NCBI GenBank assembly: GCA_027623995.1
Contig: JAQBUF010000006.1
Coordinates: forward strand, 2,895 to 66,894
Reading direction: 5' to 3'
DNA length: 64,000 nt
Source: Nitrospirota bacterium
Lineage (GTDB): Bacteria > Nitrospirota > Nitrospiria > Nitrospirales > UBA8639
Position 1 is the first letter of the stretch. Every line of letters begins with the position of its first letter. Made by a program: the position numbers and the translations under genes. This document shows positions 7,389 to 31,901 of the stretch, piece by piece. The notes under the pieces were generated by a model. It made no database searches and was not told the DNA's origin. It saw only the letters and a program-made list of their open reading frames with translations.

Positions 7389-7645
7389 TGGCCTCTCCCC
7401 TTTCGTGTCTGCGGTAAATCATGACGCCCTTGTATTTACATTTACATTTCCACGTTCCGCATTATATTGAATTCCCCAAGATTGCCAAGGCCGAAATATA
7501 ATGTGATTGGGAGAAAATTCACGTAGGATAAAACAACTGACCCTCCGACCCACCCTGTAACAATTTTCGCCACGGAGCGACTACAAGAAAATTAAACAGT
7601 GATCGTTCCCCTGCCCTGAACCTTCTTCATCGAGAGAAACATCCT

Positions 7646-8485
7646 ATGTCCAGCAGCGTTCCGTTACTCAGGCGAAGACCGCGTGTAAACAAGAATCTAT
7701 TACGAAACCTAGGGCTGCTGTTGATGGCCAGCATGCTCTTTCTTGGATGGGCACGTAGCGACGCGGCACAACATACAGCACCATCCGGCAAGCATTCGTC
7801 TACCCCCCGAGACACCCATTGGGATTATCTAGGCGTGGAAGGGCCTGAGCATTGGAGTATGCTCACTCCAAAATATATGACCTGTGAGGCAGGCAGACAG
7901 CAATCCCCCATCAACATCACGATGGCTGACCATGGCCAACAGCCTGAAACCTTAGAGTTTCACTACCAGACCTCGGAACTACACGAACTCAACAACGGCC
8001 ATACTATCCAAGTCTCCCACATTTCTGAATGCAACGTGGCTCTCAACCATCACACCTATCAATTGCGCCAATTTCATTTCCATGAACCCAGCGAACATCA
8101 CATCGAAGGCAAAGCCTTTCCGATGGAAATGCATTTGGTCCATCAGGATGAAGGAGGGCATATTCTCGTCATTGCAGTCATGCTGACCATAGGAGCAGAC
8201 GAACCAGTCCTCGGCCAGCTTTGGCAATGGCTCCCCAAACAAATCGGACAGGAAGTCTCGCTACCTCTCAATTTGAGCATTGCGGAGATTCTCCCGAAAA
8301 ACACTCGTCATTTTTCCTATTCAGGGTCACTGACGACTCCACCCTGCACCGAAGGTGTTCAGTGGATCGTCCTGGAGGAACCGATACATATTTCGCAACA
8401 GGATGTGGATCAATTCGTGCAGATCATTGGACACAATGCCCGCCCCGTCCAGCCATTAGAAAACCGCCACATCGAAGAGAATTAA
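7646..8485 (+). CDS. cah: Periplasmic alpha-carbonic anhydrase
   Basis: Signal peptide, 'QSPINI', 'NNGHTIQ', Zn ligands 'QFHFH...EH...EMHLVH', 'YSGSLTTPPCTEGV.W'. Confidence 0.93.
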   Translation: MSSSVPLLRRRPRVNKNLLRNLGLLLMASMLFLGWARSDAAQHTAPSGKHSSTPRDTHWDYLGVEGPEHWSMLTPKYMTCEAGRQQSPINITMADHGQQPETLEFHYQTSELHELNNGHTIQVSHISECNVALNHHTYQLRQFHFHEPSEHHIEGKAFPMEMHLVHQDEGGHILVIAVMLTIGADEPVLGQLWQWLPKQIGQEVSLPLNLSIAEILPKNTRHFSYSGSLTTPPCTEGVQWIVLEEPIHISQQDVDQFVQIIGHNARPVQPLENRHIEEN

Positions 8486-15987: not shown

Positions 15988-16671
15988 ATGGGCTCAGGCA
16001 CAACTTCAAAAATCCTCTGGCATTTTACTGGAGGACCCGTTTGGGATAAAAAAACTGGAAACCAAGCAACATCTCCTCGGCCAGAAATTGATGCCCTTTC
16101 GGCTTTAAAAGGAATTTTAGATTCAAGTAAGCTTCGCTACACCTCACACGAAGAATCTATCAAATATAATTTCAAGTCCCCTGGGCTTGTTGAGCTAGTA
16201 ATTCCTCCATTCTGCTGCGTTGCAGAAATCCCAATTCAACACCTTTCCTATCACAGCGAGCGGTATGGGAAGTTCGCGATTGGGTTCGAGAGAGAATACC
16301 TCCTTGGACAAAAGTTTAGACCTGTTTCTTACTTCTTAATAGAAGAAGATTTCATGGCTCCGGCGGTTATAAATGTATCTCAATTTGTCTCCCACCACAG
16401 AGCTAACCCTGGTGCAGAGCAAGCCATACATCATCTTAGTGTTCTGAGCGCCTTCGTAAAATCTTTTACAAAAGAGGAATTTGATACCATTTATTCTGAA
16501 CGGGAATGGAGGCGGCTTAGAGAAGAGGAGGAAATTGACTTTAAATTTGACTCAAATAAAGTAAAATTCGTTCTCTCGCCAAAAAAATATATTCAGGAAC
16601 TCCGATCAACATTTGGCCAAAAATCTCCAGAAGCGAATTTCTTGGAATATGAGCTCCTATTGGAACACTAA
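15988..16671 (+). CDS. AbiGi-like (abortive-infection antitoxin family) protein
   Basis: 'ILWHFTG', 'FCCVAEIP...L.YH..RYGKFAIGF', 'PVSY', 'EREWR'; visibly AT-richer than its neighbours. Confidence 0.7.
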   Translation: MGSGTTSKILWHFTGGPVWDKKTGNQATSPRPEIDALSALKGILDSSKLRYTSHEESIKYNFKSPGLVELVIPPFCCVAEIPIQHLSYHSERYGKFAIGFEREYLLGQKFRPVSYFLIEEDFMAPAVINVSQFVSHHRANPGAEQAIHHLSVLSAFVKSFTKEEFDTIYSEREWRRLREEEEIDFKFDSNKVKFVLSPKKYIQELRSTFGQKSPEANFLEYELLLEH

Positions 16672-17020
16672 TTTCTCATTAAATTTTCCCCCTCCAATCG
16701 CAAGCATGCGATTTCTCGGCTGCCAATTACCTCACTTGCGCCAGGCCCAACCTAGGCATGTTGCCGTAGATGCATGCGTGCCTCTTTGATTCCACCAAAA
16801 AGTTTTTGTATTAGATGCCGATGCTGCCCTCCGCTCCGTCGGTTTGTTTAAATCGCTTCCAGGCTGACAGATGTTCCTTCCTTGGATTTTGTGCGTAATC
16901 TTCCAAGGCCTTAAAGAAACGCCAATATAGGCCCCATTGATTTCAAGCCCTGCTCGTGCGAAAACTCTACAGGAATTGTTTAGTAATTCTGGAATTCATC
17001 ATTCAATAGGAGGACGACAC

Positions 17021-17821
17021 ATGCTTGGAACAGACGTTAGTATGGACTTATTGGTGCAGTATGGCGTGCAGGCCACGAGTGCGCTGCTAATCTTGGCCGC
17101 TGGGTTTTTATTTGCGCATTGGACGGGCAAATACACGCACAAGGCTTTAGCCCGATTCGATATGGAGCCACCAGTACGGCTCTTGTTGGTTCGAGTCACC
17201 AAAGGGATTGTCATTTTGATGACCTTACTTGTGGTCCTGCAACAATTCGGCGTTCAAATTTTCCCCCTTATCGCTGGTTTGGGTGTGGCTGGTGTGGGAA
17301 TTGGGTTGGCGCTACAGGGTGTGTTTTTCAACTTGTTTGCCGGGCTCAGTATTATTTTCACCAAACCCTTTCGTGTGGGCCAATACATCGAGTTGTTGGG
17401 GGTGTATGGAGAAGTTCAAGCCATCGATATCTTTACGACAAAGCTCAAGCATTTAGATCAATCCGATATAATCATTCCCAATCGACTGATTATTGGCGAG
17501 ATCCTCCATAACTATGGGAAAATCCGCCAACTTGATTTGAGTGTGGGGGTCGCCTATGCCACCGACTTGAATAAGGCACTCGCCACAGTCCGACAGGTAG
17601 TGACCGATAACACCCGAACCCTTCAAGAACCTGCTCCAGTCATAGGCATCACTCAGTTGGCAGATTCATCCATCAATATTTGCGTGAAGCCCTGGGTGAA
17701 TATTCCAGACTACGTAGATTCGCAAGCTGAACTGTACGAAGCGATTGTTGAACAATTCCGGATCAATGATATTCAGATTCCATTCCCGCAACGTGAGATT
17801 CGGATGATGAATGCGAGTTAG
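17021..17821 (+). CDS. mscS: Small-conductance mechanosensitive channel
   Basis: AGGAGG RBS; 3 TM helices; 'GIGLALQG...NLFAGL.IIFTKPFRVGQYIE..G..G.V..I'. Confidence 0.9.
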   Translation: MLGTDVSMDLLVQYGVQATSALLILAAGFLFAHWTGKYTHKALARFDMEPPVRLLLVRVTKGIVILMTLLVVLQQFGVQIFPLIAGLGVAGVGIGLALQGVFFNLFAGLSIIFTKPFRVGQYIELLGVYGEVQAIDIFTTKLKHLDQSDIIIPNRLIIGEILHNYGKIRQLDLSVGVAYATDLNKALATVRQVVTDNTRTLQEPAPVIGITQLADSSINICVKPWVNIPDYVDSQAELYEAIVEQFRINDIQIPFPQREIRMMNAS

Positions 17822-17984
17822 AAGATTCACCCATTCAAATTTGTCAAAAAAAGACGCGTAAGAGGATGACTCAGGACATCCTGCCACACAAAATTTTGTA
17901 AAAGAGGGAAATCGAATCGATCTGTAATACTTCTTCCTGTGGTGGGACTAATTCTTGTGACTAATTTTATAAACTGAGCTCCGC

Positions 17985-18848
17985 ATGAATACACCAACCC
18001 AAACACCTCATATCGGCGTAGGCCTTCGACCTACTCACTACCCGTTTCTAGAAGAGAAGCCCAAGGTCCGCGTCCAGTGGTTTGAGGCAATCAGCGAAAA
18101 TTATATGGATTCGGAAGGTCGTCCGCTCGACATGCTGGAACTCATTCGCGCTGATTACCCGGTGGCCCTGCACGGAGTGTCGCTTTCGATTGTTTCGGCA
18201 GAGGGTCTCCGCTCGGACTATCTCGCGAAACTGAGGACCCTGATTGATCGCATCAACCCCTTCATTGTCTCGGACCATTTATGCTGGACCGGCCAACACC
18301 ATGCCAATCTTCATGATTTGCTGCCGTTTCCTTTTACCGATGATGCACTCCGCGTTATCCAAGAAAATGTCGATCGTGCCCAAACAACGTTGGGTCGGCA
18401 AATATTGTTAGAAAACGTCTCGACCTATCTGTCGTTTCCCGGCACGCCCTACACTGAGTGGGAATTCCTCATACAGGTGGCCAAGACCACCGGCTGCAAA
18501 TTGTTGTGTGATGTGAACAACCTCTATGTCAATTCGCAAAATCATCACTTTGATCCCCTCACCTTTGTGGATGCCATTCCCACCGAGCTGATAGGACAAA
18601 TCCATTTAGGCGGATACTCGGATATGGGCACGTACCTTTTCGATACGCATTCCAAACCTGTCTATCCACAAGTGTGGGAACTGTTCTCTCATCTTATTGC
18701 ACGCGTGCCGGATGTTCCTGTGCTCATTGAGTGGGACGACGACATTCCTGAATTTCCTCGACTCGAAGAAGAAGCATTGAAAGCCGCCACAATATGGGAT
18801 AGCCATCATGGACCAGTTGACACTAAAGCACTTTCAACATCTGTTTAG
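17985..18848 (+). CDS. DUF692 multinuclear non-heme iron oxidase (MNIO, BufB/ChrH-like)
   Basis: 'EAISENY', 'LHGVSLS', 'VSDHLCW', 'LLENVS', 'DVNNLYVN', 'QIHLGG', 'DTHS', 'LIEWD'. Confidence 0.93.
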   Translation: MNTPTQTPHIGVGLRPTHYPFLEEKPKVRVQWFEAISENYMDSEGRPLDMLELIRADYPVALHGVSLSIVSAEGLRSDYLAKLRTLIDRINPFIVSDHLCWTGQHHANLHDLLPFPFTDDALRVIQENVDRAQTTLGRQILLENVSTYLSFPGTPYTEWEFLIQVAKTTGCKLLCDVNNLYVNSQNHHFDPLTFVDAIPTELIGQIHLGGYSDMGTYLFDTHSKPVYPQVWELFSHLIARVPDVPVLIEWDDDIPEFPRLEEEALKAATIWDSHHGPVDTKALSTSV

Positions 18849-19605
18849 TCAGGCCACCCAGCCAAGCGTAGAGCCGGAGACATCACCGACGATTGGAGAC
18901 TTGCTCCTGCCTGGGGGAACACTCACCACCCCTGGTGCTCTCAATGTCTATGCCGATGGAGTCGTGGCTCGCCTCACTGAAGCTCTGGGGGAAACCTTTG
19001 AAGCCATCTGGTGGGTGTGTGGAGATGATGATTTTTTTCAATTTGCCAAGTACTATATTCAGACTCATCCATCTTCGACCTACAATCTGTCGAACTACGG
19101 AGAAGAGTTTCCCGACGTTCTCGACCGTATGGCTCCATTTCCCGACCTACCCTTTCTCGGCGACCTGGCTCGATACGAGTGGCTCTTTAAATTCCTCTTT
19201 CACACCAAGCCACATGAGTCCGTATCCCCAGACTCCCTTCAATCCCTCAGCGAAGACGCGACCATTCGATTTCACTTTGGGTCCGCCATGCGACTCTTCA
19301 CCTCGCCATACGCCGTCTATGACCTTTGGAAACTCCGGGGCACCGAACACGATGGCAAACCACCGACAGAATGGGATCACTCTCAATCCTTGGTGTTATA
19401 CAAAAAGGACAAGCAAATTTTCATACGCGAAGTTAGTGACGCAGAATATGGCATCCTGCTTGCTCTCCAACAAAACGCCACGCTCGAAGGTGCGCTCACA
19501 TCTGCCGTCGATGCACATCCCTCCTTTGACCAACAACGGATCGCCGACTTGTTCCAAATGATGTTTCACACGGGAATCATTCATCACATTGAGATTGAAC
19601 CCTGA
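18808..19605 (+). CDS. DUF2063 MNIO partner protein (BufC/HvfC-like)
   Basis: Overlaps the DUF692 stop; 'LNVYA.....RLTEAL...F......G.D.F...A..Y....PS....L..YG..F...L', 'DLARYEW'. Confidence 0.88.
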   Translation: MDQLTLKHFQHLFSQATQPSVEPETSPTIGDLLLPGGTLTTPGALNVYADGVVARLTEALGETFEAIWWVCGDDDFFQFAKYYIQTHPSSTYNLSNYGEEFPDVLDRMAPFPDLPFLGDLARYEWLFKFLFHTKPHESVSPDSLQSLSEDATIRFHFGSAMRLFTSPYAVYDLWKLRGTEHDGKPPTEWDHSQSLVLYKKDKQIFIREVSDAEYGILLALQQNATLEGALTSAVDAHPSFDQQRIADLFQMMFHTGIIHHIEIEP

Positions 19606-19696
19606 ACTAGATGGCTCCCCTCCCCCACGGTTATGCGCCAAACGATATCACCAACTTCATTCACAATCCACTACTTCCCCAAACCCCGGATAATCT

Positions 19697-20341
19697 ATGC
19701 TAGTCAAACCTGAAGAACGTCAGCCATTGGCTGAGCTGCTGTATTTTTTAGAATTGGGCGAACAGCTGGCACACGAAGTGGCCGCCACACAAGCGACCAT
19801 CGCCCCAACCACAAAGATGCATCGATTCCTTGAAGGCCAGGCGAGACAAGAGGCTTTTCATGCCACCGTCTTTCGTACATCCAGGATGTGGATCGCCCCC
19901 CGCCTGGCCAATCCCCAGAAATCTCATGAACCGTTTAAAGAGTTTAGGGCATTAATGAGAACCGCCCTCCATCGCAAGGATTTTTTCGAATCCATTCTCG
20001 CGGAACAAGTCATCCTCGAAAGCCTAGGCGAAGCGATTCTTCAAAAGCTGGAAGTCGGACTCCAAAAACGTCGCGCACCCTTTCGGCGACTGCGAAGCAT
20101 TTTGCTTCATCAGGAAGCCGCGCATCATGGATTTGGTGAGCGAGTGCTAGAACAGGCTATCGCCAATGAAGTTCTCACGAAACAAGAACTCCAAGAAAAA
20201 GCATTGCCATATTTGGCGTTGTCAGAATCCATGGTTATGAACTTGAAATCTCAATTTAAAGAAATTGACGAAGATCCTGGAGAGTACCTGACCATCCAAC
20301 ACACATTCCTTCCCGACTGGTTGGAAGAAACCGCAGCATAA
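19697..20341 (+). CDS. Ferritin-like diiron protein
   Basis: Four-helix diiron pattern: GE(QLAH)...QEAFH...VILE...QEAAHHGFGE. Confidence 0.75.
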   Translation: MLVKPEERQPLAELLYFLELGEQLAHEVAATQATIAPTTKMHRFLEGQARQEAFHATVFRTSRMWIAPRLANPQKSHEPFKEFRALMRTALHRKDFFESILAEQVILESLGEAILQKLEVGLQKRRAPFRRLRSILLHQEAAHHGFGERVLEQAIANEVLTKQELQEKALPYLALSESMVMNLKSQFKEIDEDPGEYLTIQHTFLPDWLEETAA

Positions 20342-20347
20342 AATCTT

Positions 20348-21043
20348 ATGATCTACATCATCATGCCAACGTACAACGAGGAAAAGGCCCTTCCCTTTAC
20401 CCTGTCGGCACTTCTACAGGCACACGCACCGTATGAAGTCGTCATCGTCGATGGAGGAAGTACGGACCGCACCAAACATATTGCTCGCGGCACACCCAAT
20501 GTCACATTCCTCACGGCTCCCAAAGGACGTGCCTCACAGATGAATGCTGGAGCAGACTACGCGATCGAACTCAGTACGGATTCCAATGATTGGTTGTTAT
20601 TTCTTCACGCCGACACCATTCTTCCAGCCGAGAGCCTTCACCGACTCCAGGCCATGCGCGAAGATCTCTCTGTCCAGGCTGGAGGTTTCTTTCATCAGTT
20701 TTCCGGAAAGGATTGGCGACTGAGATTCATTTCTTGGTTGGATAACTTTCGATGCAAACATTCACGAGTCATCTACGGCGACCAAGCCCTCTTCGTGCGA
20801 CGTGGACTTTTTGAACGACTCGGAGGCTTTCCCAATCAACCCATCCTCGAAGATGTGGCCTTCTGCGAAAAAATCATCGCCCACACCACACCCATCCTCC
20901 TTAATCCCCCCGTCGTCACCGACTCCCGAAAATTCGTCCAAATGGGCATTTGGCGAAGCCTGGCACGGGTGTTCTTAATTATTATTAGTGTTGAATTTCG
21001 CCTGCCAGTCCTCACCCCTGCATTTTTCAGAGATATTCGTTGA
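20348..21043 (+). CDS. GT2 glycosyltransferase, TIGR04283 (rSAM/selenodomain-associated) type
   Basis: 'IIMPTYNEE', 'VIVDGGSTD.T', 'GRASQMNAGA', 'LLFLHADT', 'YGDQALFVRR..FE.LGGFP..PILED'. Confidence 0.85.
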   Translation: MIYIIMPTYNEEKALPFTLSALLQAHAPYEVVIVDGGSTDRTKHIARGTPNVTFLTAPKGRASQMNAGADYAIELSTDSNDWLLFLHADTILPAESLHRLQAMREDLSVQAGGFFHQFSGKDWRLRFISWLDNFRCKHSRVIYGDQALFVRRGLFERLGGFPNQPILEDVAFCEKIIAHTTPILLNPPVVTDSRKFVQMGIWRSLARVFLIIISVEFRLPVLTPAFFRDIR

Positions 21044-21097
21044 AAGAGTGTGGCATTTTAAAATTTGTAGAACAAAAAAAAATTAAAGAGTTTCATT

Positions 21098-22061
<964 letters not shown>

Positions 22062-29258: not shown

Positions 29259-31901
29259 ATGGATTTAATCACCACTCATCTCAATGCCGACTTTGATGGA
29301 CTTGCCTCAATGGTGGCAGCTCGGAAATTATACTCTGGCGCCACATTGGCTTTTCCTGGGGGAGCACAGGAACATGTGCGACGGTTTCTGGCCACTCATG
29401 ACTTGGGTCTCTCCAAACTTAAGGACGTGAATCTTTCACAAGTCCAGCGCCTTATTCTTGTGGACGTGCAAGAGCCGGAACGCATTGGGCGATTTGAAGA
29501 ATTGTTTCACGATCAAAAAATTGAAGTGCACATTTACGATCACCATCCCGGACATCGTGAGGAAGGAACCCACCAGCCAACACCTTCCCGCATTCATCGA
29601 GTGATGGATTCCGTGGGCGCCTCGGTGACAGTCCTGATCGAACAGCTACAGGCTCGAAGTATCTCACTGACCCCATTTGAAGCCACCGTGCTCGCCATCG
29701 GTCTATACGATGAAACGGGTTCCCTGCGCTACAACTCAACCACGCCTCGGGACCTGGAAGCTGCTGCGGTACTCTTACGCGCCAAAGCCGATCTCACAAT
29801 GGTCACGGCTTTTATGCAAACGCCACTGGATCCCGAACGCGTGGCCCTGCTCAATGATTTATTACAAACAAGTGAAACGCTGTATCTCCATGATCAGAAA
29901 GTGCTGCTCGCCACGAGTACCTATGATCGCTACACAGGCGATTTATCAGCCGTCGCCGAACAATTGGCCCAATTGGAAGGATACGATGCCATTCTCGCGC
30001 TCATGCCAATGGAAGATAAATTTCAACTGGTGGCCAGAAGCAAGAACCCCGACATCAACGTTGGAAAGTTGGCCGAATATTTTGGAGGTGGCGGACACCC
30101 GCAAGCCGCGTCTGCCACGATAAAAGGGAAGACCCTGATTGAAGTCACCGAACAGATTCGCGAACACGTCCTTTCGGAACCCAACAAGGCTCTGAGTGCC
30201 GCCAACATCATGACGACTCCTGTTCAAACCGCACATGAAGACGCCACGGTCATAGAAACGGAACAACAGATGACCCGTCTCGGCGTCAACGTCCTTCCGG
30301 TACTCAACACGAAGAAACGATATCTAGGACTCGTCTCCCGAGAAACCATTCAAAAAGCCCTGTTTCATGAATTCCGCGATATTCCCATTCGCACCATTCT
30401 GCAAACAGATATGTATACAGCAGAGCCTCACACGCCCTTTCATGACATTCAAACCCAGATGCTCGAACGCAATCAGCGTTTTGTGCCCATCCTCAAGGGC
30501 GGACGGGTGATTGGCGTGTTCACGCGCACCGACCTTTTACGAACGCTCCATCAGGATATTCTCGAATCCGCCCATGCCCCGGCAAAAGGCACCACCACGC
30601 CTCCGGCTCACCGGCACCGCAATGTGAAAGCCATGCTCAAGACTCGCTTTCCTGGTGATCTGTACGACCTTCTTGTGCTCGTGGGAGAGCAGGCGGAGCA
30701 GCATCACGTTGGGCTGTATCTTGTCGGCGGATGTGTGCGAGACCTGATTCTCAATATCCCCAATTTGGACATCGATGTGGTCGTGGAAGGAAACGGCATG
30801 GCGTTTGCCAAAGCCTTTGCCAAACGGCTTGGAGCCCGCGTGAAAGTCCATGACCGGTTTGGGACCGCGACGGTTACCTGCGCTAAGACCTGCAAACTCG
30901 ACTTTGCCACCGCGCGCACGGAATATTATGAATTCCCCACAGCCTTGCCGACCGTGGAACAAAGTTCCATTAAAAAGGATTTGTATCGCCGAGACTTTAC
31001 CATTAACACGCTGGCGGTCTGCTTAAATAGCCGCCGGTTTGGGGAACTGGTAGATTTTTACGGCGGCCAACGCGACCTTCATGACAAAACCCTCCGCGTG
31101 CTGCATAGCCTTAGTTTTATTGAAGACCCCACCCGCGTGTTTCGTGCGATCCGGTTTCAACAACGATTAGGCTTTCGGCTGGGCAAGGAGACGAGCACCC
31201 TGATTAAGGGGGCCGTCACGATGAATCTCTTCCATCGCCTTTCCCCCTCTCGACTGCTGAATGAACTTATCTTGCTCCTTTCGGAATCGGAACCTCGCAA
31301 GGCACTCGGTCAATTGGCGGAGTTTGATCTACTAAAGTTCATCCATCCACAGTTGAAATGGTCGCCTCAATTATCACGTGTACTCAAGGCCATTGAGGAG
31401 TCACTCGAATGGTACACCCTATTGTATCTTGACCGCCCCATGCACTCCTGGGTGGTCTACTGGATGGCACTGATGGACACGTTACCTCCCAAGGCCGTTC
31501 GTGACACCCTTCTTCGTTTAACCTTTCCCCAACGCCAGGCCAACAAGTTGGAATGTATTGGCCGAAAGTCCTCGATACTCCTGCGCCAATTGGGCAAACG
31601 TCCAGCACTCAAACCTGCCCAAATATACCGATTGCTCCAAGATCTCCCGGATGAAGCATTGATAGTATTGATGGCCAAATCTTCGTCTGAATCCATCAAA
31701 CGACAGATTTCGGCTTTTCTCACCACCTATCAACGCCTGACGCCCCTCTTGAATGGGACTGACCTCAAGGCCATTGGGTTCACGCCTGGGCCACAATTTC
31801 GAAAAATTCTTGATGCACTGTTGGATGCTCGCCTCAACGGTCACATCAAAACAGAATTTGATGAACGCGATTTCGTCAGCCAATTTCTTCGGAAGTCGTA
31901 G
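29259..31901 (+). CDS. DHH-DHHA1-CBS-class II tRNA nucleotidyltransferase (probable A-adding enzyme)
   Basis: 'HLNADFDG', 'YDHH', 'GGGGH..AASA', CBS pair, 'YLVGGCVRD.....DIDVVV', 'DLYRRDFTIN', 'FIEDPTRVFRAIRF'. Confidence 0.9.
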   Translation: MDLITTHLNADFDGLASMVAARKLYSGATLAFPGGAQEHVRRFLATHDLGLSKLKDVNLSQVQRLILVDVQEPERIGRFEELFHDQKIEVHIYDHHPGHREEGTHQPTPSRIHRVMDSVGASVTVLIEQLQARSISLTPFEATVLAIGLYDETGSLRYNSTTPRDLEAAAVLLRAKADLTMVTAFMQTPLDPERVALLNDLLQTSETLYLHDQKVLLATSTYDRYTGDLSAVAEQLAQLEGYDAILALMPMEDKFQLVARSKNPDINVGKLAEYFGGGGHPQAASATIKGKTLIEVTEQIREHVLSEPNKALSAANIMTTPVQTAHEDATVIETEQQMTRLGVNVLPVLNTKKRYLGLVSRETIQKALFHEFRDIPIRTILQTDMYTAEPHTPFHDIQTQMLERNQRFVPILKGGRVIGVFTRTDLLRTLHQDILESAHAPAKGTTTPPAHRHRNVKAMLKTRFPGDLYDLLVLVGEQAEQHHVGLYLVGGCVRDLILNIPNLDIDVVVEGNGMAFAKAFAKRLGARVKVHDRFGTATVTCAKTCKLDFATARTEYYEFPTALPTVEQSSIKKDLYRRDFTINTLAVCLNSRRFGELVDFYGGQRDLHDKTLRVLHSLSFIEDPTRVFRAIRFQQRLGFRLGKETSTLIKGAVTMNLFHRLSPSRLLNELILLLSESEPRKALGQLAEFDLLKFIHPQLKWSPQLSRVLKAIEESLEWYTLLYLDRPMHSWVVYWMALMDTLPPKAVRDTLLRLTFPQRQANKLECIGRKSSILLRQLGKRPALKPAQIYRLLQDLPDEALIVLMAKSSSESIKRQISAFLTTYQRLTPLLNGTDLKAIGFTPGPQFRKILDALLDARLNGHIKTEFDERDFVSQFLRKS

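Follow-up and report, generated by a model that had tools for sequence, protein, structure and literature searches.

A likely split bufferin-2 system in a genus of Nitrospirales, with diiron protein and glycosyltransferase genes beside its maturase pair

Gene content of the locus

The window analysed in this study is a stretch of 64,000 nucleotides (nt) from a Nitrospirota bacterium (UBA8639; assembly GCA_027623995.1, contig JAQBUF010000006.1, positions 2,895-66,894, forward strand), whose genome comprises 110 contigs and 3.13 Mb with a completeness of 99.7%. Four co-oriented genes at 17985-21043, namely, a bufferin maturase pair, a gene for a diiron protein (termed FERR) and a glycosyltransferase (GT) gene, were investigated, and their open reading frames (ORFs) lie precisely as claimed in an earlier note made from the sequence alone. 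G, C and L numbers are our own handles for genomes, contigs and loci.

The first gene, bufB (17985-18848, plus strand, as are the other three), encodes an MNIO (DUF692) and overlaps by 41 nt with bufC (18808-19605), which encodes its DUF2063 partner. A spacer at 19606-19696 separates bufC from the gene of FERR, a four-helix-bundle protein of 214 amino acids (aa; 19697-20341), which is followed by a GT2 gene for a divergent paralog of the TIGR04283 type (20348-21043). A promoter-like bipartite motif, TGTAAT-N17-GACT, occupies 17923-17949 on the plus strand and ends 35 nt 5' of the MNIO start codon (ATG); the immediate upstream neighbour of the MNIO gene encodes an MscS channel. Scans of the four-gene operon for sigma-70 promoters and terminators yielded nothing beyond chance. 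The four genes probably form one transcription unit whose two halves differ in history.

The earlier note had reported the absence of adjacent precursor, DoxX and ECF sigma genes, which holds for the window locus: no precursor-like ORF was found in the 163-nt spacer before bufB or within 16600-21600. A 30-aa frame ending in Cys (19611-19703), named there as a weak precursor candidate, does exist and was rejected. No related locus carries a homolog, and most of the frame lies in the non-homologous 19606-19696 spacer, the scar of a deleted radical SAM (rSAM)/SPASM gene.

The maturase pair and its distant precursors

The MNIO passed the BufB equivalog model NF050167 (MNIO_BufB) with 338.7 bits against a cutoff of 310, matched PF05114 with an E-value of 1e-97 and retains the metal-site motifs in an alignment to 3BWW. 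The DUF2063 protein matched PF09836 (58 bits, cutoff 27.2, E 1e-15), and its match to HvfC was weak. Only one full MNIO is present in the window genome. A further PF05114 match, on C31, was rejected as a second maturase, with 27.8 bits over the C-terminal third of the model only and no precursor nearby. This 302-aa ORF (C31:21027-21371; L002:964-1872) matches positions 153-243 of the MNIO model only and may represent a remnant or a remote relative with a TIM barrel.

An 88-aa ORF with a lipoprotein signal (LLIASGC) and six Cys stands immediately 5' of the orthologous MNIO gene in seven relatives, filling a conserved 0.5-kb gap in five of them and holding the equivalent position in the other two. 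It passed the BufA2 model NF050166 with 70-76 bits (cutoff 60), so the ancestral order was the standard bufA-bufB-bufC. No bufA2 precedes the MNIO gene in the three genomes of the window genus, where the gaps measure 72-190 nt, and no alternative conserved Cys-rich ORF was found near the MNIO gene in three genomes.

By tblastn, a tandem pair of BufA2 genes was located on a different contig of the window genome (C93:31274-31555 and 31594-31884), each gene having a strong ribosome-binding site; no DUF2282 (BufA1) precursor was found in this genome. BufA2a scored 63.6 bits and BufA2b 56.6 bits with NF050166. One paralog retains the lipobox and the other carries a plain Sec signal, and none of the six Cys varies among 13 BufA2 sequences. 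Genes for a VTT/DedA protein, a MerA-like disulfide oxidoreductase and DUF3047 lie upstream of bufA2 on C93, and the opposite strand carries genes for a thioredoxin-like protein, a zf-HC2 anti-sigma factor (HxxxCxxC motif, weak RsrA match), an ECF sigma factor (C93:32957-33706) and a LuxR-type regulator. The window genome thus combines a BufB-model MNIO, a DUF2063 gene directly 3' of it and a Sec-type six-Cys BufA2; the contiguous bufA-bufB-bufC order of the seven relatives is lacking. The suggestion of the earlier note that the MNIO works on a distant peptide is supported by the two genes on C93.

Distribution of the split arrangement

The orthologous MNIO (67-75% identity) is confined to the window's own family, in which nine genomes carry it, the window's included. 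A scan with NF050166 detected BufA2 in all nine, and none in G359, which has no MNIO, or in 18 genomes outside the family. The split was found in three genomes of one genus, each of which keeps both the maturase pair and BufA2: the window genome, G299, where a tandem bufA2 pair lies 1.88 Mb from the MNIO gene on one contig, and Candidatus Nitronereus thalassa, where the distance is 217 kb. The bufA2 loci of the latter two are colinear with C93. In G186 and G159 a single locus reads PNDR-VTT-VTT-PNDR-DUF3047-DUF547-bufA2-MNIO-DUF2063-(rSAM)-FERR-GT, with thioredoxin, anti-sigma, ECF and LuxR genes on the opposite strand. These gene orders indicate that the split is old and maintained.

Selection was evaluated against the species that share the split. 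The dN/dS values were 0.07-0.08 for the MNIO and 0.05 for the DUF2063 protein (two species), and 0.05-0.14 across MNIO, DUF2063, FERR, GT and both bufA2 genes, with dS saturated. All six genes are under purifying selection.

Two side observations concern MNIO loci elsewhere. Members of the sister family Nitrospiraceae carry MNIO paralogs of just 40-44% identity at other loci; these paralogs (L018, L019, L020 and L021, from Nitrospiraceae and one further family) also adjoin VTT-PNDR-DUF3047, a triad that thus recurs by MNIO clusters across the order, and the curated model does not identify their precursors as BufA2. A degraded locus (L010; G329:C19:1961000-1979000, in a 16-Mb assembly) has a truncated DUF2063, a partial FERR and a stop inside the MNIO frame, with bufA2 present.

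The FERR-GT module and its history

FERR had no match in Pfam (E 0.01) or NCBIfam. A total of 213 homologs were obtained, and all source names given among the 120 listed were Nitrospira or Nitrospirales; among 401 sampled genomes of the phylum, 49 contain FERR, 48 of which belong to two families of one order. The ligands E22, E52xxH55, E108 and E140xxH143 are invariant in 38 homologs. A profile search against the PDB returned a weak R2 match only and no aldehyde-deformylating oxygenase (ADO). The AlphaFold2 model (pLDDT 91) aligned over its full length with ADO structures 5ux2, 4rc6, 4kvq and 2oc5 in Foldseek, with TM scores of 0.78-0.82 at 17-19% identity. FERR is ADO-like at the level of the predicted fold and lies outside the ADO family by sequence; the resemblance proposed in the earlier note extends to fold and ligands, not to membership of the sequence family. 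Residue 28 is Cys in over 90% of homologs and Val in the window and a close relative, P0003. This change is not linked to the loss of the rSAM gene, because the P0003 genome retains that gene.

The assignment of the GT to TIGR04283 was confirmed by 199.9 bits against a cutoff of 182 (dN/dS 0.06-0.09). The canonical pair of TIGR04282 and TIGR04283 is located on C32, not beside the window GT. This pair (C32:11628-13128; L026:6628-8128) lies next to dCTP deaminase and KamA-type aminomutase genes, with no motif near.

Gene maps of the module, built by tblastn together with called genes, showed an older unit, (rSAM/SPASM)-DUF547-FERR-GT, which occurs without an orthologous MNIO in G359 and each of the 38 FERR-carrying Nitrospiraceae genomes; consequently, 39 of the 48 FERR genomes lack that MNIO. 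The MNIO and DUF2063 genes are placed between DUF547 and rSAM in the window family. The distance from MNIO to FERR is 0.7-5 kb in eight of its nine genomes; in the ninth, G269, they are on separate contigs. The two halves are 2.3 kb apart in G383. Relatives carry a 335-aa rSAM at the position of the 19606-19696 spacer. DUF547, rSAM, MoOx and two glyoxalase-like genes are retained in close relatives and have all been lost from the window lineage. The rSAM gene is present on L034, a contig encoding a FERR of 98% aa identity. This contig becomes homologous to the window 4 nt 5' of the FERR ATG, so the rSAM deletion was clean and fairly recent.

Candidates for an ArsS assignment or a further precursor were also considered. 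The relatives' rSAM was rejected as ArsS: all NCBIfam matches were far under cutoff, and ArsS was not among the best matches listed. No precursor-like ORF is conserved near rSAM-DUF547-FERR-GT in the genomes without MNIO, where the search yielded just a methyltransferase and an exported protein of 137 aa that lacks Cys. A 29-aa membrane peptide of relatives was likewise rejected as a precursor, since it is conserved but Cys-free and was not found in the window genome by tblastn. This peptide (MGGLEYFG...KGKRPK; L003:1498-1587 and L005:3461-3550) is encoded beside a TPR gene in one of the two relatives.

Distribution of the promoter-like motif

The motif TGTAA(C/T)-N17-GAC(T/A) precedes bufA2 in G299 and in each of the seven relatives with the unsplit order; its boxes are conserved and its spacers vary. 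It stands directly before the MNIO gene in the window, G299 and Nitronereus, the only three genomes in which bufA2 does not precede MNIO. Its chance probability in the upstream spacer of the window MNIO (taken as 169 nt) was approximately 6e-4. Two matches were obtained in the window against 0.19 expected, the second of which (7556-7582, plus strand) lies 63 nt 5' of an exported alpha-carbonic anhydrase gene (7646-8485, PF00194) that may belong to the same regulon. In 266 kb of family loci, where about 2 matches were expected, 27 were obtained; almost all are intergenic and co-directional, and they precede bufA2, MNIO, VTT2, MoOx, DUF547, rSAM or a YHS gene. Loci from other families, 108 kb in total, yielded none.

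There are 17 matches across the 3.13 Mb of the window genome, six of which are intergenic and precede a co-directional gene or operon: those of an exported MsrB, a YHS protein, VTT2, the exported alpha-carbonic anhydrase, the MNIO, and an operon on C78. The last (C78:21412-23651; L035:4407-6651, minus strand) consists of an arsM-like gene (394 aa) and ArsS (TIGR04167, 450 bits). The motif precedes arsM in nine of ten family genomes and in none of three Nitrospiraceae genomes. A shared bipartite motif thus stands before several operons and is kept across species, which suggests, from its sequence distribution, that it marks one lineage-specific regulon. The candidate regulon is most likely under the ECF sigma/ZAS anti-sigma pair that neighbours bufA2.

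Discussion

Taken as a whole, these results make it likely, in our judgement, that the locus belongs to a split bufferin-2 system with maturation in trans. The bufB and bufC genes would be the maturase pair of this system. By analogy with Caulobacter Buf2, BufB-BufC would oxidise four central Cys of the Sec-exported six-Cys BufA2 to 5-thiooxazoles in the cytoplasm, and the mature peptide would chelate soft metal ions in the periplasm. The family ancestor presumably had the order bufA2-bufB-bufC, and a rearrangement in the window's genus would have parted the genes. The precursor gene would have remained by DUF3047 and the ECF sigma/ZAS anti-sigma genes and been duplicated to lipoprotein and soluble forms (C93:31274-31884); bufB-bufC would have been relocated with the same putative promoter now directly 5', so that, as we infer, the enzyme acts in trans. 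FERR and GT would be the remnant of the older (rSAM/SPASM)-DUF547-FERR-GT module, into which bufABC inserted and from which DUF547 and rSAM were later lost. Both halves, the distant bufA2, arsM-arsS and several exported stress genes may form one stress regulon through the shared motif, probably read by the neighbouring ECF sigma factor. The MNIO half represents a known system whose trans arrangement is unusual and conserved, and the FERR-GT module most likely acts on a small molecule that is hydrophobic or carries a sugar, rather than on the bufferin peptide.

Several observations weigh against this account. Only a variant motif, CGTAAT-N17-GACC, precedes bufA2a in the window genome, and the BufA2b score falls slightly short of its cutoff. 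Three motif matches lie inside the ECF gene just 5' of the anti-sigma gene and may merely mirror conserved codons. With the assembly in 110 contigs, binning and the colinear gene order of relatives provide the sole link between C93 and the window contig. The FERR and GT genes also follow bufC closely and accompany it in almost every genome of the family, which leaves room for a tailoring role on the peptide.

The other reading that the earlier note had offered was an undescribed single pathway combining two iron oxidases and a sugar transferase, in which the MNIO, the diiron protein and the GT would act in turn on the bufferin peptide (for example, by glycosylation or further oxidation) or on a non-peptide molecule. 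The genes are co-oriented and tightly spaced with no internal terminator, the MNIO lies no more than 5 kb from FERR-GT in nearly all family genomes, bufABC was inserted within the module, and rSAM/SPASM enzymes frequently mature peptides. However, the module lives without BufA2 and this MNIO in G359 and the 38 Nitrospiraceae genomes, which does not support an obligate pathway, and it has no conserved precursor-like ORF beside it in MNIO-less genomes. Within the family, bufA2-MNIO-DUF2063 stands apart from FERR-GT in G269 and G383. Moreover, the predicted ADO fold would indicate a hydrophobic small-molecule substrate, and the window FERR contains no Cys, so it is not itself the substrate. We regard such a pathway as improbable. 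The earlier note had named as contrary outcomes a bufA-like precursor elsewhere in the genome, which was found on C93, and FERR and GT genes not conserved next to the MNIO, which does not describe the window's family; overall, its distant-peptide alternative was upheld and its joined pathway was not.

A change of substrate within the genus, by which the MNIO would have turned to another peptide or a folded protein and the C93 BufA2 would be unmodified or made otherwise, was judged very unlikely. Divergence from the unsplit relatives is greater for DUF2063 (41-53% identity) than for the MNIO (67-72%), and stand-alone bufferin precursors of unknown modification status have been reported (PMC12452194), which would suit such a change; against it, the MNIO scores above the BufB equivalog cutoff, BufA2a and BufA2b keep all six invariant Cys and their genes are under purifying selection, and neither another full MNIO in the genome nor another conserved Cys-rich ORF near the MNIO gene in three genomes was found. 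Least credible of all is that MNIO-DUF2063 is a functionless, decaying relic stranded by loss of its precursor. No precursor is adjacent and the locus has been shedding genes in this lineage (DUF547, rSAM, MoOx and the glyoxalases), but both ORFs are intact with their metal-site motifs, the dN/dS values against the two species with the same split are 0.05-0.08, and every one of the three genomes in the genus retains the pair, immediately preceded by the motif, together with BufA2.

The split bufferin-2 reading can be compared with buf2 of Caulobacter vibrioides (BufA2, BufB2 and BufC2; CCNA_02999-03001), which has a six-Cys BufA2 and no DoxX (Leprevost et al. 2024, PMC11626156). Four central Cys of that peptide lose 4 Da each, a change of -16 Da, with a further -2 Da for a disulfide (PMC11626156). 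The two systems share a BufB-model MNIO, an overlapping DUF2063 gene, a Sec-exported six-Cys BufA2 and a DoxX-less cluster. In contrast to Caulobacter, the precursors of the window genome are on another contig, and those of its relatives 217 kb to 1.88 Mb off; they are duplicated as lipoprotein and soluble forms; and they lie beside ECF sigma/ZAS genes, with the maturase genes in a putative shared transcript with unrelated enzymes. A published survey found sigma/anti-sigma genes in Buf1 and not in Buf2 clusters, and reported many stand-alone Buf1 and Buf2 precursors, tandem precursors and approximately 16% lipoprotein-type Buf2 (Antoine et al. 2025, PMC12452194). It proposes that an MNIO at another locus modifies the stand-alone precursors, and it does not mention Nitrospira or contexts with DUF547, ferritin or glycosyltransferase genes (PMC12452194). 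The present case differs from those stand-alone precursors in that each genome has a single MNIO and a single precursor locus, sister genera keep the order unsplit, and the motif precedes the MNIO gene in split genomes only.

FERR resembles cyanobacterial ADO (PDB 2oc5, 4kvq, 4rc5 and 5ux2) in its predicted fold and its E/ExxH/E/ExxH diiron ligands and differs from it in sequence (17-19% identity, no Pfam match) and in its neighbours, which are DUF547, GT2 and rSAM/SPASM genes. No acyl-ACP reductase was found in any of the loci read, with no genome-wide search made. ArsM and ArsS act in cyanobacterial arsenosugar synthesis. Similar to the set formed by TIGR04282, TIGR04283 and ArsS, the window GT passes TIGR04283, DUF547 stands alongside in relatives, and the genome has arsM-like and ArsS genes; unlike in that set, TIGR04282 and ArsS are not adjacent (C32 and C78), the module rSAM is not ArsS, and the place of FERR in the module has no counterpart. 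We consider it a tentative and rather unlikely proposal that FERR, the TIGR04283-like GT, DUF547 and rSAM/SPASM form an undescribed organoarsenical branch (arsenosugar or arsenolipid), co-induced with arsM-arsS by a thiol-sensing ECF/ZAS pair. If this proposal is true, the regulon-embedded bufferin-2 would serve arsenic or general soft-metal(loid) stress and not just copper. The possible link between FERR-GT and arsM-arsS through the motif is new. The candidate regulon also recalls SigR-RsrA thiol-stress regulons, with an ECF sigma gene on C93 next to a gene for a small zf-HC2 HxxxCxxC anti-sigma factor and with thioredoxin-like, MsrB and disulfide-reductase-like genes among its members, whereas TGTAAY-N17-GACW differs from the published SigR consensus.

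Bufferins are the largest peptide family made by MNIOs, and the published survey left open the trans modification of precursors distant from any MNIO. The window genus offers a clean natural test: each of its genomes has a single maturase pair and, at a distance, a single precursor locus, the sister genera are unsplit, and the promoter-like motif apparently followed the enzyme genes. In addition, a candidate stress regulon is defined for marine nitrite-oxidising Nitrospirales, which would tie a metallophore to arsenic-methylation genes, and a diiron family with a predicted ADO fold, found almost only in Nitrospirales and covered by no database model, is brought to notice.

Other features of the window

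The surroundings of the four genes differ from those in close relatives. AbiGi-like and MscS genes at 15988-17821 stand where close relatives have MoOx and DUF547, in the interval between the methyltransferase and MNIO genes, and approximately 8 kb is also inserted in the window between the GT gene and the gene of a CCA-adding enzyme. On the minus strand, four consecutive ORF fragments at 21098-22040 resemble a frameshifted sigma-54 activator, with a GAFTGA AAA+ core, a C-terminal Fis-type helix-turn-helix and no N-terminal domain, and probably represent a pseudogene.

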